Below, piece by piece: positions 6,286 through 21,621 of a DNA stretch of 64,000 nucleotides (position 1 is its first letter; the number at the start of each line of letters is the position of its first letter). Location of the stretch: NCBI GenBank assembly GCA_964512085.1, contig CAZEIU010000001.1, positions 7,647 to 71,646 of the forward strand, given 5' to 3'. The position numbers and the translations under genes are program-made. The notes beneath the pieces are model-generated. The model was not told where the DNA came from, did no database searches, and saw only the letters and a program-made list of their open reading frames with translations. This DNA is from an uncultured Candidatus Saccharibacteria bacterium (lineage in GTDB: Bacteria; Patescibacteriota; Saccharimonadia; CAILAD01; BJGX01).

Positions 6286-8031
6286 ATGAAAAATATTTTT
6301 AAAATGTTTCGCTTTATACCTGGCGAAAAACTGCGTATTTTTAGCATAATTATTTTTAGTATTATCGGCGGATTAGTAAACACCGTAATACCTATACTGT
6401 TTAAAAACCTTATTAATCAAATTTCGCAAGCTACTTTACGAAATAATTTTGAGGTCGTTTACAAAATACTATTACTTATAATTGCAATATTCTTAGCTGA
6501 ACAAGTCCTTTTATTATTCAAAGAAAAGGTATCAGATACCTTTAGAATGCATGTAATGACAAAGTTAAGACTGGCTGTGTATCCTAAGATATTATCATTA
6601 GATATAGCTTACACCGAGAAACATCAGCCTGGATCAATCTTGCAAAAAATAAATCAAGGAATTGGCGATTTTGTAAATTGGATATTTAATTTGAGCGAAT
6701 GGATAGGAACACTTATTACATCGACTATTTTTATCTTAATTGTTTTATGGTACCAAAACATATGGCTTGGGCTTATATACACCTTCACTGTCGTAGTTAT
6801 GATATACATTACCAAGAAAAAAACTATTAGCCAAAAGCCATATATGAAACGTGCCAACATATTGCAAGAAAAATTCTCGGGCAAGCTTAATCAAACACTT
6901 TCTCACCTCGAAACCATCAAAACCATGTCGGCTGAAAAAATAACTTCAGTACAATTTAAAAAAACCAACGAGCAATTAAAAAATGAAAGGCTAAAACAAT
7001 TTGCTGTGCAGCGTCGCTATAATTTTTTGAGAGATTTTATTGGCGCAATAGGTGTAGGATTAGGGCTGCTAGCGACGACATATCTTATTACCAAAAAATC
7101 ATTTAGCGCTGGCGATATATTCTTGGTAGCTCTCTACTCTAGGACCCTAATGAACTCTATTCAGCCATTAGGTTTCTTAGTACAACAAACATCTGAGGTT
7201 AATTTTACCTCATCAAGACTTATTGATTTTCTTGAGACAGCACCGATAGTTTCAGATCGTGTTGAATCCGAAAAACTAGAGAAGTTGGAGTCGTTAGTAT
7301 TTAAAAACGTTACTTACGATTATCCCGATGGCAAAAAAGGTGCAGTTAGATCGGTGAGTTTTGAAATTGATTCTAGTAAGACTGTTGCTCTAGTTGGACC
7401 TTCGGGCGTTGGCAAATCTACACTTACAAAACTTATCTTAAGATTTTATACTCCAACCAAAGGACACATTGAACTCAACGGAAATGAAATTGCAAATTAT
7501 CAACAGAATAGCATAAGAGAACGAATTGGTGTTGTTATGCAAGACGTAGCTTTATTTAATTCTACAATTTTAGAAAATCTACAAATAGCCAATGCCAAAG
7601 CCTCTAAAGAACAAATTATTAATGCAGCCAAACAAGCTAATGCCGATGAGTTTATTCGCGAGCTTCCCAAGGGCTACAAGACTTTAGTTGGTGAACGTGG
7701 CGTAAAGCTTAGCGGTGGCCAAAAACAACGTATCGCTATAGCTAGGGCCATACTTAAAGATCCAGATCTTATTATTCTCGATGAAGCTACAAGTGCTTTA
7801 GATAGCGAAAGTGAAAGATTAGTACAAGATGGCTTACAAAAACTTATGAAAAACCGTAGCGCACTAGTTATTGCGCACCGCTTAAGCACCGTAATGCACG
7901 CCGATGAAATATTAGTGCTCCAAAAAGGTACCATTGTAGAACGCGGAACTCACCAAGAACTTATTAAGTATGGTGGGCTTTATAAAAAGTTATTTGAGAT
8001 GCAATCGGCAAGTGGAAAGGTTAGATTATAA
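6286..8031 (+). CDS. ABC transporter, fused permease/ATP-binding (exporter, MsbA-like)
   Basis: Six-TM N-terminal half, then an NBD with Walker A (GPSGVGKST), signature LSGGQKQRIAIARA and Walker B (IILDEATSALD). A TTGTCA...TATAAT-like promoter sits in the divergent region 6143-6285. Confidence 0.9.
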   Translation: MKNIFKMFRFIPGEKLRIFSIIIFSIIGGLVNTVIPILFKNLINQISQATLRNNFEVVYKILLLIIAIFLAEQVLLLFKEKVSDTFRMHVMTKLRLAVYPKILSLDIAYTEKHQPGSILQKINQGIGDFVNWIFNLSEWIGTLITSTIFILIVLWYQNIWLGLIYTFTVVVMIYITKKKTISQKPYMKRANILQEKFSGKLNQTLSHLETIKTMSAEKITSVQFKKTNEQLKNERLKQFAVQRRYNFLRDFIGAIGVGLGLLATTYLITKKSFSAGDIFLVALYSRTLMNSIQPLGFLVQQTSEVNFTSSRLIDFLETAPIVSDRVESEKLEKLESLVFKNVTYDYPDGKKGAVRSVSFEIDSSKTVALVGPSGVGKSTLTKLILRFYTPTKGHIELNGNEIANYQQNSIRERIGVVMQDVALFNSTILENLQIANAKASKEQIINAAKQANADEFIRELPKGYKTLVGERGVKLSGGQKQRIAIARAILKDPDLIILDEATSALDSESERLVQDGLQKLMKNRSALVIAHRLSTVMHADEILVLQKGTIVERGTHQELIKYGGLYKKLFEMQSASGKVRL

Positions 8032-11762: not shown

Positions 11763-12356
11763 TTATAGCTGTTTTAAGATAGTCGGGATCTTTGAGAAGT
11801 CTTCGAGCAATGTTTTGCGCATTCCCCCGTTATAGAGAGCTGCAGCCGGATGATAAAGTGGCAAAAAGACCAACTTAGATCTTTTATAAACTTTTCCGTG
11901 GGCTTCGCTTATCTTAAGTTCTGGCAAAAACACATTCATGCTGTGTCGGCCGAGAAAAACTATCAGTTTGGGCTGGATAATTTTGATTTGAGCCAAAAGG
12001 TACGGCAAGCACACCTCTATCTCTTTGGCATTGGGGTCTCGATTGTCGGGTGGTCTAAACTTAACGATATTCGTCACAAAAACGTCATCGCGACGCAATT
12101 CAATACTTTCAAGCATTTCGTCGAGAAACTTACCGCTAGCCCCTACAAATGGTCTACCCAGTTTGTCTTCTTGAGCACCTGGTGCTTCACCAATAAACAT
12201 CAATTGTGAATCTGGGTCTCCATCGCCCGGTACTGGGTTGAGACAACTTTTAGCGATTTCTAAACCGCAATCGCGAGAAATAATACTCTCTGCAATTTCG
12301 TCTAGTTTTTTCTGCTTTTCTTCTGTTGTCATATTCACCCCAGTGACGCCGACCAA
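11763..12356 (-). CDS. uracil-DNA glycosylase, family 4
   Basis: GEAPGAQEDKLGRPFVGASGKFLDEML motif block typical of family-4 UDG. 197 aa. Confidence 0.8.
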   Translation of the reverse strand: MVGVTGVNMTTEEKQKKLDEIAESIISRDCGLEIAKSCLNPVPGDGDPDSQLMFIGEAPGAQEDKLGRPFVGASGKFLDEMLESIELRRDDVFVTNIVKFRPPDNRDPNAKEIEVCLPYLLAQIKIIQPKLIVFLGRHSMNVFLPELKISEAHGKVYKRSKLVFLPLYHPAAALYNGGMRKTLLEDFSKIPTILKQL

Positions 12357-17391: not shown

Positions 17392-17464
17392 TGCCCCCGG
17401 TGGGATTCGAACCCACGATCTTCGGATTAAAAGTCCGCTGCCTTGCCTACTTGGCTACAGGGGC
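17392..17464 (-). tRNA. tRNA-Lys (anticodon UUU)
   Basis: Reverse complement folds as a cloverleaf: GCCCCTG acceptor stem, anticodon loop CTTTTAA (UUU), T-arm GTGGGTTCGAATCCCAC, discriminator A. CCA not encoded. Confidence 0.9.
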
Positions 17465-18531: not shown

Positions 18532-18597
18532 TTTTATTCAAACTTTTTTGTTGAGATCCTTAAGGACCTCAAATAATGAGGCCCCTAAGGGGTTTTG

Positions 18598-18940
18598 TGG
18601 AGCTGGGGGGAATCGAACCCCCGTCCAGCCTTACAGAAAAATTACATCGCTACGACCATTCCCAATATTTGAGTTCTCAGCTACTCCAGCCTGGGTGGCT
18701 TGCTGAATCGTCTTTCCGAATCGTCAACCCAACTTTCTGGGTAAGTCAGCGGTCTTTGCCAGCTGTCACCTCCACTTCTGTTGCCAGGCTGTGGTAGATG
18801 GCCCCGAATCTTCGCACTCAGTGCGATTTTCGAACAACTTTGGGTTTTAGGCCGCGGTTGTTGGGGTGCCCCGTTTTACGAGTCTGAGCAACTCGGGTCG
18901 CAATATAGCTTCTGCAAGGATGTCGATACCGATCAGCCCC
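18598..18940 (-). ncRNA. ssrA: tmRNA (transfer-messenger RNA)
   Basis: Minus-strand 5' end GGGGCUGAUCGG pairs with 3' end CAGCUCCA, giving a 7-bp acceptor stem with G3:U70. T-arm GGACGGGGGUUCGAUUCCCCC immediately precedes the 3' end. ~343 nt, CCA not encoded. Internal tag frame not confidently assigned. Confidence 0.85.
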
Positions 18941-19103: not shown

Positions 19104-19295
19104 TTACAGGTAGCCAGCCGACACCTTGGGGTTCTCTGGGAGGGTATCGTGTGCTTCGGCACACGCATGTCCACTCTCGTGACCCCTCAAGAAGAACTCC
19201 ATGCAGATCTCGACCGGGCTCATGCCCTCAGCAGTCATCTCGAGGATCATCTGCTCGGCAAGGTCGAACATGAGTTCCATCTCGGGATCCTCCAT
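19104..19295 (-). CDS. small acidic hypothetical protein (63 aa) with strong SD, GC-rich codon usage
   Basis: AAGGAGAG 6 nt upstream of ATG; helical acidic sequence MEDPEMELMFDLAEQMILEM...; codon usage (CTC/GAG/GGC) unlike the host background. Confidence 0.3.
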   Translation of the reverse strand: MEDPEMELMFDLAEQMILEMTAEGMSPVEICMEFFLRGHESGHACAEAHDTLPENPKVSAGYL

Positions 19296-20235
19296 TGCAC
19301 TCTCCTTCTTCTCGTCGGAAAAATAAAGGTAGAAATAGAAAAAGAGCTAAGTTCACCTCAAGCAAGGGTGAGCCTAAACTATCGCGGTTGCGATAGACGA
19401 GTCGCTCCAAAGCTACTACTCTCGTTTTAAGTTGCTCAAGTAGTATCAGCTAGAAAACCCAGCTGTGCTTGAGTGAGCATGAGAAATGGTCGTAAGGAAC
19501 ATCTCGGGACTATCCCGACAGAAACTTTCGAACTAGTTAAATGTTCAAAAACTTTTGTTGAGACCCTCCGAGACCCCAACAAAGTTGGAGCCCCGAAGGG
19601 GTGATGAGACAACACCTAGCTGTACTGAGCTTTCGCTAGATGGTTGAGCCGTCTGGTTAGGCTCAGGCATTATGTCTCCTTGCCCGGATCAGGATTTGCT
19701 GATGCATCTCAGCCTGATCAACTCTACCCTCTCTTGCGCATGCATCATTATGCACTTCGGAGCAGGATAGAGATTTTTGGGCAGCTGCGCTCAATCCGTC
19801 GGCAGACGAAGAGCGACGAGCCGCCACGAGCTTGACACTCCCTTTCGCGAACGCTTGCGGTTTCACCCGCTCACGCACCGGGGAAGGAATGTCGTCATTA
19901 AGCCACTAGGGTCCCCGGATCCAATTGTTTTACTACCCACCTCTCTCGAGGTCACCCGTTTGCGGGTGTCGGAGTATACCTCCGCAGGCTGGATCATTAC
20001 TTACCTCCCTACTGTCTGCGAGCGCTTCTGCAGAACTTCATCCTCACCCGGCGAACCGTTTTAGATGAAGCCTCCCCTGTAACGCCGGGAAGCAGATTGT
20101 CGTGGCAGCGATTTTAGCTGTAAGGCTCCCCACCTCCCATCGGCCCGATCGTGTCGAGTAGCGACGAAGAAGCTCTTACAGCAAGGTTGAGATGAGGCAG
20201 CGGTCCCGCCATGACCCTCAACCTAATTTTTTGAA

Positions 20236-20295: not shown

Positions 20296-20598
20296 ATTTT
20301 GTAGGTACTACTATTTGCAATAACCATTTGCTACTGCCAAAGTCCGTAATGACATTACCAATCTGTCCACAATAATTTTTTAATATATGACACTGGCGCA
20401 TTACAGACTGTGGCAATATAGCAAAGTACAGTTTTCGTTCTAAGTGGCAACATGGGTTGCCGAACTCATCAGTGCTGGCACTACCAGCAGAACTGCCCCC
20501 TAGGGCAAAAACACTAGGGGTAGAGATCCTTCCAAGGGAAGGTTGAGCGTCATCTCTATGTGGCGCGCTGATTTTAGCTCGTGAGCTCGAGCAGTGGA

Positions 20599-20747: not shown

Positions 20748-20966
20748 TCACTGAGTGACTAGCTGTGGCGACCGGCGTGGGGGCACAGGCTCAACGTGGT
20801 TGTAGTCAACCTCGTCGTCTGCGAAGGACCCAAACGGGTACCCTCGCCCACAACTCGGGCAGATCCTCTGCCGAGTCGCGTCCCAGCCGGTGTACTTCAG
20901 CACCGTGTCATCTACGACACAGCGCTTCAGTTCCACCTTCTTCTTTCTCTTGGTAGGCATACACAA
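20748..20966 (-). CDS. small zinc-ribbon-like hypothetical protein (72 aa; may start at second ATG, 20960)
   Basis: MPTKRKKKVELKRCVVDD...ICPSCGRGYPFGSF...; a C-x2-C pair with a basic N-terminus; strongly GC-biased codons (CTG, GTG, GAC) foreign to this genome. Confidence 0.35.
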   Translation of the reverse strand: MCMPTKRKKKVELKRCVVDDTVLKYTGWDATRQRICPSCGRGYPFGSFADDEVDYNHVEPVPPRRSPQLVTQ

Positions 20967-21170
20967 ATCACTGTTTAAATGCTCTATGTGTGCCTACCAA
21001 TTTATTACAGGTAAAAGGTACTTTGGGTAGTATAGCAAAGAATATTATTTTTGTCAATACTTATTTACACTTTTTTTAGAGTTTGCAACTTCTTTCCTGT
21101 AGCTAATACTATATTTTGTGTTAATAACAAATATTTTTGTAAGGTTTATTAGTTTTTTTGTACGTAAAAA

Positions 21171-21188
21171 CCCGACATTAATGTCGGG
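21171..21188 (-). terminator. rho-independent terminator (CCCGACA-ttaa-TGTCGGG followed by T5 on the minus strand)
   Basis: 7-bp GC-rich stem; AAAAA on the plus strand at 21166-21170 gives a U-run in the minus sense. Terminates a minus-strand transcript coming from the GC-rich block 21240-21540. Confidence 0.5.
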
Positions 21189-21621
21189 TGATATGGTGTT
21201 GCCAGTAGTAATGGCGATATAGAGCCTTAATTACTATGGCAGAGATCGGTAATACTTACACTCCAGCTGTGTCGGTCGCGAAAGTGTCGCGCCTGCTAGA
21301 GGGAGACTTTTCTGCCGCACTGCTGTGTCTGCGTGATGAGTGACTGTGTGGCGGGTGGGTGGCCGAGAGTCTCAATCTCGACGCAATTTGGTAGGATCAA
21401 ATTCCTTCCATCCCTTTTCCTCTCCAGTGTTCAGCTGTTACCACTTGGGCCGCCCCAGGACCTTCCTGGGGCTCCTCGCTGCCCTCTCTTGAGGGCGAAG
21501 AAAGGATCGTCAGATCCCGTCCATGTATTACCCCCCCTTTAGAGAAGTGAGCGAGAACAGCTTTTACCAATATAACAGTTTAACTATTTTTTGTCAATAG
21601 TATTTGACAACAAAAAATATT

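Follow-up and report, generated by a model that had tools for sequence, protein, structure and literature searches.

The locus and its transcription unit

The DNA analysed here is a stretch of 64,000 nucleotides (nt) from an uncultured Candidatus Saccharibacteria bacterium (GenBank assembly GCA_964512085.1, contig CAZEIU010000001.1, positions 7,647 to 71,646), which we call the window and to which all coordinates refer unless another locus is named. On its minus strand, an open reading frame (ORF) of 265 amino acids (aa) for a TrmB-like protein, whose homologs carry PF01978 (TrmB), ends with a stop codon at 21624-21622. Directly 3' of this gene (gene end 21622) lies a GC-rich block which the original prediction, made from the letters alone, had proposed as a structured minus-strand RNA of ~350 nt at 21166-21545, with nested hairpins, a terminator and no credible ORF. 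Our analysis confirms that observation, and it supports and extends its interpretation. The block is very likely an RNA gene with a conserved fold, and two conserved ORFs of only four codons are present in it.

The GC content is 0.53-0.58 over 21200-21500 as compared to 0.27-0.38 in the flanks, and that of the transcript is ~53% as compared to ~38% for the Saccharibacteria genome. From promoter and terminator geometry the RNA unit is ~397 nt in length and runs from 21562 to 21166 on the minus strand. It is delimited by the following elements.

21592-21597, minus strand: -35 hexamer TTGACA of the RNA's own promoter (consensus scan)
21569-21577, minus strand: extended -10 element TGtTATATT (consensus scan)
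21166-21189, minus strand: intrinsic terminator ACCCGACA-UUAA-UGUCGGGU with its U run (UUUUU)

The promoter, TTGACA-N17-TGnTATATT (21597-21569), agrees with the consensus at 11 of 12 positions and has a 17-nt spacer and the TG extension. The transcription start deduced from this geometry is ~21562, 7 nt 3' of the -10 element. Helix P1 of the fold described below begins at this very base, and it does so in relatives too. Of the extent proposed earlier, the terminator end at 21189-21166 therefore stands, whereas the start moves from 21545 to ~21562. The minimum free energy (MFE) of the block, when compared with 100 dinucleotide shuffles, gives z = -5.3 for the minus strand and z = -4.6 for the plus strand. 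A plus-strand transcript was considered and is ruled out by the orientation of promoter and terminator together with the excess of G-U over A-C pairs in the fold (25 versus 6), which points to the minus strand.

The unit shows what is expected of an independent bacterial small RNA (sRNA) gene, namely a sigma-70 promoter, an intrinsic terminator, no long ORF and conservation in relatives. Judging from these sequence features, the RNA is probably an independent and strongly expressed gene. No terminator was found between the stop codon of the TrmB-like gene (21624-21622) and the RNA promoter, so the RNA would also form the 3' untranslated region of the TrmB-like mRNA. The next unit has a near-consensus promoter of its own (TTGACA-N17-TATACT, 21057-21029, minus strand) in an AT-rich spacer, and read-through control of the downstream gene is thus not required.

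A perfect inverted repeat, TTGTCAA-N6-TTGACAA, is present at 21610-21591, and its right half contains the -35 hexamer of the RNA promoter. It is kept in the relatives L039 and L034 and partly in L040 and L055. This repeat may serve as an operator, to which the neighbouring TrmB-like regulator perhaps binds, or as an UP-like element.

Distribution among relatives

Relatives were sampled through loci anchored on the TrmB-like protein, comprising 3 genome loci, 30 metagenome loci and 25 loci from exact-protein look-ups (homologs of 63-100% identity); the genomes sampled are Saccharibacteria metagenome-assembled genomes. The RNA unit follows the TrmB-like gene in L001-L017, L019, L034-L046 and L055-L058, which represent ~25 related lineages. 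The layout is kept in essentially all loci in which the TrmB-like protein is at least 49% identical and enough downstream sequence is available. In this layout, a TTGACA-N17-TAnnnT promoter leads into a GC-rich stretch of 250-620 nt without conserved long ORF, which ends in a strong terminator and is followed by an AT-rich spacer with a second promoter. L018 is an exception, with a DHH gene directly after the TrmB-like gene, and distant TrmB homologs (30-36% identity, L025-L031) are without the RNA unit. The RNA family is restricted to Saccharibacteria and lies just 3' of the TrmB-like regulator gene. A structured minus-strand RNA, as proposed earlier, is supported by the matching promoter, by this synteny in many Saccharibacteria and by covariation in the 5' domain; sequence conservation in relatives is found, the unit being syntenic and its fold kept.

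Eight contigs from different samples encode an identical TrmB-like protein, and their RNA has 0-1 changes relative to that of the window, the sole one being 21463 A>G in the triloop of hairpin P5. Such near-identical strains are uninformative for covariation in the 3' half. The contigs of L034, L037 and L040 end 0.9-1.15 kb 3' of the TrmB-like gene, within the RNA-rich interval; such breaks in independent assemblies suggest that strains vary there or that the interval contains repeats, such as multiple hammerhead cores.

A four-way junction conserved at the 5' end

The fold of the 5' domain was derived by comparison of the homologs by eye and then with MAFFT and RNAalifold. Its elements, including the first Shine-Dalgarno (SD) sequence, SD1, and the first mini-ORF, ORF1, are arranged as follows.

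21433-21562, minus strand: 5' domain, a four-way junction of 130 nt (MAFFT and RNAalifold, covariance model, covariation)
21562-21556 with 21439-21433, minus strand: helix P1, AGCUGUU/AACAGCU
21555-21550 with 21480-21475, minus strand: helix P2, CUCGCU/AGCGAG, whose arm holds SD1, mini-ORF1/P3 and P4
21518-21513 with 21508-21503, minus strand: helix P3, whose 5' arm is formed by codons 3-4 of mini-ORF1
21481-21496, minus strand: hairpin P4, GCCCUC-AAGA-GAGGGC, whose pairs covary
21472-21464 with 21460-21452, minus strand: hairpin P5
21450-21448 with 21442-21440, minus strand: short hairpin P6

P5 is the hairpin CCCCAGGA-AGG-UCCUGGGG (21471-21453) that had been singled out in the original prediction, and the GC-rich block with its nested hairpins is real. 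In a structure-blind MAFFT alignment of 9 sequences, 87.6% of the cells are paired as compared to 37-48% when partners are slid by 1-3 columns, and 20 of 30 pairs have changes on both sides. None of 500 shuffles reaches the observed value on four of five measures, and 16 of 500 do so for pair-type diversity. A covariance model (R1) built from this alignment finds a single copy in the window (116 bits) and recovers sequences outside its training set (L036, L039, L044, L007, L003, L046, L055 and L057). In a model alignment of 13 sequences, five of which are not in the model, 88.6% of the cells are paired and compensatory change is seen in 25 of the 30 pairs; its covariation score of 0.545 exceeds that of shuffles (0.187) and of slid partners (at most 0.152, with 39-47% of cells paired), and none of 500 shuffles matches it. 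Being fitted to R1, the 13-sequence alignment leans toward the structure, and the 9-sequence MAFFT alignment is its unbiased control. Compensatory changes thus exceed both the shuffle and the slide controls in the comparative check that had been called for. Single-sequence MFE folds of 14 homologs reproduce P1, P2, P5 and P6. Few nucleotides lie in the junction itself and they are not conserved, which speaks against a ligand pocket. Weak R1 matches at L041:7479, L042:6033 and window:53038 represent a small-protein gene or noise and were rejected as paralogs.

The view that this is none of the standard housekeeping RNAs holds. Rfam 15 (4227 models, including RNase P A/B, 6S, signal recognition particle (SRP) RNA, transfer-messenger RNA (tmRNA), T-box, riboswitches and OLE/GOLLD/ROOL/HEARO/raiA) gives no match overlapping 21166-21562, either at the gathering threshold or at E<=10, and it is equally silent on the homologous RNA in 11 relatives (8 searched at E<=5, plus L001-L003). 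The RNase P models RF00010, RF00011 and RF00373 find nothing at E<=10, and an RNase P-like string, GGAAGGUCC, falls within the perfect P5 hairpin, the stem of which covaries freely. At the gathering threshold, Rfam identifies in the window only a tmRNA (18595-18940, 109.7 bits) and a tRNA (17392-17464), which is a tRNA-Lys according to ARAGORN. One might suspect a known housekeeping or regulatory family in strongly diverged form, be it RNase P RNA, 6S, SRP RNA, a T-box, a riboswitch or a second tmRNA, and the GC-rich character, the strong promoter and terminator and the clustering with tmRNA and tRNA-Lys would all suit this. Given the lack of Rfam 15 matches at E<=10 for the window and at E<=5 for 8 homologs, a compact, covariation-supported four-way junction whose junction nucleotides are sparse and unconserved and which matches none of those families, and the true tmRNA at 18595-18940, we regard such an identity as highly improbable.

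Three further identities were rejected. A tmRNA is contradicted by the lack of a T-arm or acceptor, by negative ARAGORN and Rfam results and by ORFs which carry SD and AUG. For a tRNA-like cloverleaf, P1 has the right 7 bp while arm lengths and loops misfit and ARAGORN is negative. As for a CsrB/RsmZ-type sponge, GGA counts equal the shuffle expectation and 0-1 GGA occur in the predicted hairpin loops of 9 homologs. A phage database gave no blastn match, a pattern scan of viral contigs for the ORF1 plus P5 motif gave 0 matches, and literature searches found no earlier description of the RNA.

The surroundings of the RNA raise the question of whether a GC-rich island was acquired horizontally and has left only a non-functional remnant here, or a gene has decayed, so that the hairpins are fortuitous. 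The region from 18.9 to 21.5 kb is GC-rich and ORF-poor and adjoins tmRNA, a common integration site, and assemblies often break in it. Against this stand the synteny of the unit in lineages whose TrmB-like proteins are only 49-81% identical, the retention of promoter, terminator, helices and mini-ORFs through extensive change with compensatory substitutions, and the 0-1 nt differences among 8 strains from different samples; no integrase or att duplication was seen. A remnant seems to us hardly credible.

Two mini-ORFs

The statement that the block contains no credible ORF is correct for proteins, as its ORFs are at most 69 aa in length and match nothing in Pfam, and has to be revised for two conserved mini-ORFs of four codons, each preceded by an SD.

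21531-21537, minus strand: SD1, a run of seven G, 6 nt 5' of the ORF1 start
21510-21524, minus strand: mini-ORF1, ATG GAC GGG ATC TGA (MDGI*), with its stop codon in the apical loop of P3
21412-21424, minus strand: SD2, GAGAGGAAAAGGG (family consensus GAAAGGAR)
21397-21411, minus strand: mini-ORF2, ATG GAA GGA ATT TGA (MEGI*)

Among 17 homologous RNAs we counted 33 SD-preceded ORFs of 3-6 sense codons, as compared to 5.6 expected from dinucleotide shuffles. In most RNAs they lie at kept distances from the RNA start, at +37-48 and +142-188. ORF1 is exactly four sense codons in length in all 14 lineages that have it, while its start codon is AUG or GUG and its stop codon UGA, UAA or UAG among lineages. 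The encoded peptides are as follows.

MDGI: window, L039, L034, L035/36, L037, L041, L001
(GUG)EGI: L004
MEAI: L055
MGAL: L040
MGAV: L007/L044/L046
MNTG: L006/L057
MGGD: L003
MGGL: L017
(GUG)GGA: L019

In the seven MDGI lineages the variable sense sites are all third codon positions (GAC/GAU, GGG/GGA, AUC/AUU/AUA) and every change is synonymous; the next lineages beyond this clade show the conservative replacements D>E, G>A and I>L/V. At the ORF2 position, an SD-preceded, short, Gly-rich ORF occurs in 21 of 21 lineages examined, with AUG, GUG or UUG as start codon. It has four or five sense codons in 17 lineages (MEGI, MSGI, MGSI, MPGI, MGGI and MESG; MGGGY, MGGSI, MGDGF, MGGGC, MGATG, MGGEI, MGGGV and METGW) and 8-11 in L041, L042, L014, L010 and L002, and L013 and L015 have ORFs of ~45-52 aa in its place. 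Interchange of start codons, interchange of all three stop codons and fixed length are predicted by translation and not by helix constraint alone. It is rather likely, from these patterns of codon change, that the minigenes are translated or at least bound by ribosomes, and with two conserved SD-preceded four-codon ORFs the RNA is probably not purely non-coding.

The variable 3' part

Beyond mini-ORF2 the RNA diverges. The ~350-nt structured RNA of the original prediction is conserved in its 5' ~130 nt and in the mini-ORF2 region, whereas the 3' ~270 nt are lineage-specific. L034, L035 and L037 share only the first ~110 nt with the window RNA.

21190-21396, minus strand: lineage-specific 3' portion of ~205 nt, predicted to be hairpin-rich

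Other clades have 3' modules with a GAAGG-hairpin-CGAAG motif (L001, L004, L006, L007, L008 and L034) or with CACCUGAACAUUCCGGC (L041, L042 and L005). The 3' part of L001, L004 and L006/L057 contains a genuine ORF of 70-92 aa (tblastn 4e-25 and 4e-11, with many synonymous differences), and no trace of this small protein of L001/L004/L006 was found in the 3' half of the window RNA. The ORFs of the block itself (at most 69 aa) are not conserved in strand or frame among relatives. A protein-coding or pseudogene reading of the block was rejected, as there are no Pfam matches and homologs have their longest stop-free stretches on different strands and in different frames.

These longer ORFs lend some appeal to the idea that the conserved domain is a cis-acting 5' leader, controlling stability or translation through its upstream ORFs, for a small-protein cargo in the 3' part which in the window is unrecognised or has decayed. 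L001, L004 and L006/L057 carry the 70-92-aa ORF behind the 5' domain, L013 and L015 carry the ~45-52-aa ORFs at the ORF2 position, and a conserved 5' module with a variable 3' part is what a leader with cargo would look like. Known 5' stabilisers have a base-paired 5' end and a 5'-proximal SD, and the RNA resembles them in both. On the other side, there is no conserved ORF behind the domain in the window, L034, L035, L037, L040, L041, L055, L007, L044, L003 and L017, and the 34-aa ORF of the window with a TTG start (21400-21296, overlapping the ORF2 stop) has no properly spaced SD, no Pfam match and no detectable homolog. Lineages that have no cargo keep the domain, which points to a role independent of cargo, and we consider a leader role quite unlikely.

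Predicted folds and a proposed working principle

The free MFE folds of all 14 homologs pair SD1 with a C-rich tract (21496-21491 in the window), a helix that rests on per-sequence folding because the MAFFT alignment of this variable region is unreliable. In the free folds ORF1 forms the apical hairpin P3, its stop codon is unpaired with a probability of ~1.0 in 11 of 15 lineages, and the unpaired probability of SD1 is 0.16-0.6. When a ribosome-sized footprint of 30 nt around the AUG (-14 to +16) is forced open, the local P4 hairpin forms in 11 of the 14 homologs, and P1, P2, P5 and P6 persist in most of them.

These predicted folds allow a working principle to be proposed, in which the RNA is a ribosome-gated switch. 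In the free RNA, SD1 and mini-ORF1 would be locked in an extended hairpin, with SD1 on the C-rich tract and the stop codon in the apical loop, and the 5' end of the four-way junction would be buried in helix P1. A ribosome could load on SD1 and ORF1, most easily during transcription; with the ribosome on ORF1, the C-rich tract would find a new partner in the G-rich tract next to it, and P4 would form. The engaged ribosome would in this way toggle the domain between two folds, and both minigenes, of 4-5 codons, would be translated into M-[D/E/G]-[G/A/S]-[I/V/L]-type peptides. The output may lie in how stable the RNA is, in what its variable 3' part does, in control over the small protein that some lineages co-transcribe, or in the peptides themselves. 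We put forward the switch as such only tentatively, as it is drawn from folding models. For the wider proposal, namely a lineage-specific structured RNA which engages ribosomes through two minigenes as a dual-function RNA or switch and is not an inert sRNA, we see about an even chance on the sequence evidence, and it is our best reading.

Several observations weigh against this proposal. The G-rich codons double as helix arms, and structural and coding constraint are therefore partly confounded. L008, L042/L043/L005, L056 and L014/L010 keep the locus and ORF2 without ORF1, which is dispensable there, and the peptides MNTG, MGGD and MGGA of distant lineages mean that there is no single universal peptide sequence. 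The two-state model is a thermodynamic prediction only. No regulated output was identified, the terminator lying ~320 nt beyond ORF1 and the next unit having its own promoter (21057-21029), and the 3' ~270 nt of the window RNA have no detectable similarity to the 3' halves of L034, L035, L037 or other relatives.

Some of the same data would suit a purely non-coding structured sRNA acting in trans, by base-pairing or by sequestering a protein, the G- and C-rich tracts of which are helix arms or binding sites for proteins or for the SDs of mRNAs. Support for the fold is strong, the predicted free structure holds SD1 and often the AUG as well in base pairs, some lineages are without ORF1, and the C-rich tracts could pair with SDs. 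C-rich tracts that pair with SDs are a known type of sRNA seed in Gram-positive bacteria. The interchange of start and stop codons, the fixed four codons and the purely synonymous variation of the MDGI clade, however, fit translation and not a helix alone, neither GGA enrichment nor a GGA-in-loop pattern of the CsrB type is present, and the alternative fold frees segments whose sequence is not conserved. A purely non-coding role thus appears unlikely, though not negligible.

A bolder version of the ribosome-engaging proposal, which we regard as doubtful and which again derives from the codon patterns, is that the minigenes are truly translated and that their products or nascent chains are the purpose of the RNA. 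If so, the M-[D/E/G]-[G/A/S]-[I/V/L] tetra- and pentapeptides would come from the shortest conserved coding genes that bacteria are known to have. Their site of action could be the translating ribosome, in the manner of the E-peptide or by sensing charged tRNA or translation capacity; alternatively they could be small signalling or metabolic peptides in an amino-acid-auxotrophic episymbiont, and the four-way junction would be a ribosome-gated scaffold.

Other elements between the TrmB-like gene and tmRNA

Candidates for type III hammerhead ribozymes are found on the strand of the RNA, 1.0-2.4 kb 3' of the TrmB-like gene, in the window at 20427-20497 (minus strand) and in relatives at L003 7191-7249, L046 2423-2477, L043 4195-4263 and L002 12295-12378. 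They score below the Rfam gathering threshold (27.7 bits in the window; the best is L003 with 47.8 bits, E = 1.5e-7) and recur at the syntenic position, with an intact CUGAUGAG...CGAAA core and a covarying stem II (GCUC/GAGC, GUCC/GGAC, GCCC/GGGC and GUUC/GAAC). In L002 (12295-12378 and ~13193) and in L044 (+1671 and +2415 from the TrmB stop), paired same-strand cores flank a GC-rich segment of ~750-860 nt; self-cleavage at both would be expected to excise a defined RNA with ends suited to circularisation. Only one hammerhead was found in the window.

A second GC-rich (0.49-0.59), ORF-poor stretch of ~650 nt (~19554-20230, minus strand) is located 3' of the hammerhead. It has no Rfam match and ends in a double-hairpin terminator, UUUGUUGGGGUCUCGGAGGGUCUCAACAAA, with U-rich sequence, which is nearly identical in L001 (13540-13575). 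This stretch may be another large lineage-specific RNA. The regions 18543-18600, 3' of tmRNA, and 19541-19610, 3' of the ~650-nt RNA, share a two-hairpin module, CCCCUU(A/C)GGGG ... UCUCAACAAAA(G)UUU, which looks like a duplicated terminator rather than att sites.

The promoter at 21057-21029 drives a GC-rich ORF of 72 aa (20748-20966, minus strand) with a weak zinc-ribbon-like CPSCG motif (Pfam E = 0.08). This second promoter is conserved in relatives and the small ORFs behind it differ by lineage. Another ORF, of 63 aa (19104-19295, minus strand), begins with MEDPEMELMFDLAEQMILEMTAEGMSPVEICMEFFLRGHESGHACA, has a good SD and no Pfam match, and has homologs in the same interval of L002 (11656-11814), L041 (~7479) and L042 (~6033); on this evidence it appears to be a conserved small protein.

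L002 contains a 78-nt element (11846-11923) which matches only the joined ends of the tmRNA model, that is the tRNA-like domain (44.8 bits against a gathering score of 47, E = 1.3e-15), and L003 has a tRNA-Gly(GCC) (6846-6914) in the same relative place, 5' of the hammerhead. A tie between the Gly-codon-rich mini-ORFs and this nearby tRNA-Gly or tRNA-like element is pure speculation. The interval from the TrmB-like gene to tmRNA, with the RNA, hammerheads, the second GC-rich RNA and tmRNA, is an RNA-gene cluster worth annotating.

Comparison with known systems

Tiny genomes are the rule in Saccharibacteria, as in the Candidate Phyla Radiation at large, and a 2022 transcriptome paper on TM7x states that no small RNAs have been validated in that organism; the RNA would rank among the first lineage-specific regulatory RNAs defined for Saccharibacteria. 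With its paired four-codon ORFs, the idea that minigenes function in natural genomes, and that an RNA fold is gated there by ribosomes, can be put to the test.

The predicted arrangement resembles leader-peptide attenuators and translational switches such as ermC, cat-86 and trp, in which a strong SD and a very short ORF lie within mutually exclusive helices and ribosome occupancy decides which helix forms. A short SD-preceded ORF over mutually exclusive helices is found here too, as predicted by folding. In contrast to those leaders, the ORFs of this RNA family have only 4-5 codons and the switch lies inside a conserved four-way junction. Moreover, P4 is neither a terminator, as it has no U tract, nor a mask for the SD of a downstream gene. 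Most lineages have no gene downstream within the unit, and a constitutive-looking terminator follows ~320 nt later. The defining feature of an attenuator, a terminator or masked SD before a regulated gene and coupled to the alternative helices, is therefore lacking.

As a stand-alone structured RNA running from promoter to terminator with a conserved small ORF, it is similar to the dual-function sRNAs SgrS/SgrT, RNAIII/hld and SR1/SR1P. These encode peptides of ~26-43 aa or longer and have defined base-pairing seeds, whereas here two ORFs of 4-5 codons are present and no seed or target is identified. Similar too are natural and engineered minigenes, namely lambda bar, that of the 23S rRNA E-peptide, a pentapeptide, and that of the axe-txe operon (PMC8708949), which are likewise SD-preceded ORFs of 2-5 codons in structured RNA and whose effects come from the act of translation or from the nascent peptide on the ribosome. 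They are single cases with neither a covarying junction nor amino-acid conservation across a phylum-level lineage, and for the window RNA no link to Pth or antibiotics is shown.

The 5' end is reminiscent of the 5' stabilisers of Gram-positive mRNAs, such as the cryIIIA STAB-SD and 5'-terminal stem-loops, with a GAAAGGAGG-like SD near a base-paired 5' end and no long ORF after it; counted from the predicted 5' end, SD1 starts after ~25 nt, and in relatives it fits a GGAGG-like consensus. A STAB-SD needs no start codon or ORF, whereas start, length and stop are conserved here and there is often no cargo to stabilise. Finally, the RNA is comparable to orphan RNAs of the Bacteroidales-1 and Chloroflexi-1 type (PMC2864571), which are confined to one lineage, GC-rich and covarying, have their own promoter and terminator and cluster with RNA genes. 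It differs from these motifs in its absence from Rfam 15, in its conserved minigenes and in its fixed synteny with a transcription-factor gene. The RNA is best read as a new family, absent from Rfam, and as a variant of the ribosome-engaging, dual-function RNAs.

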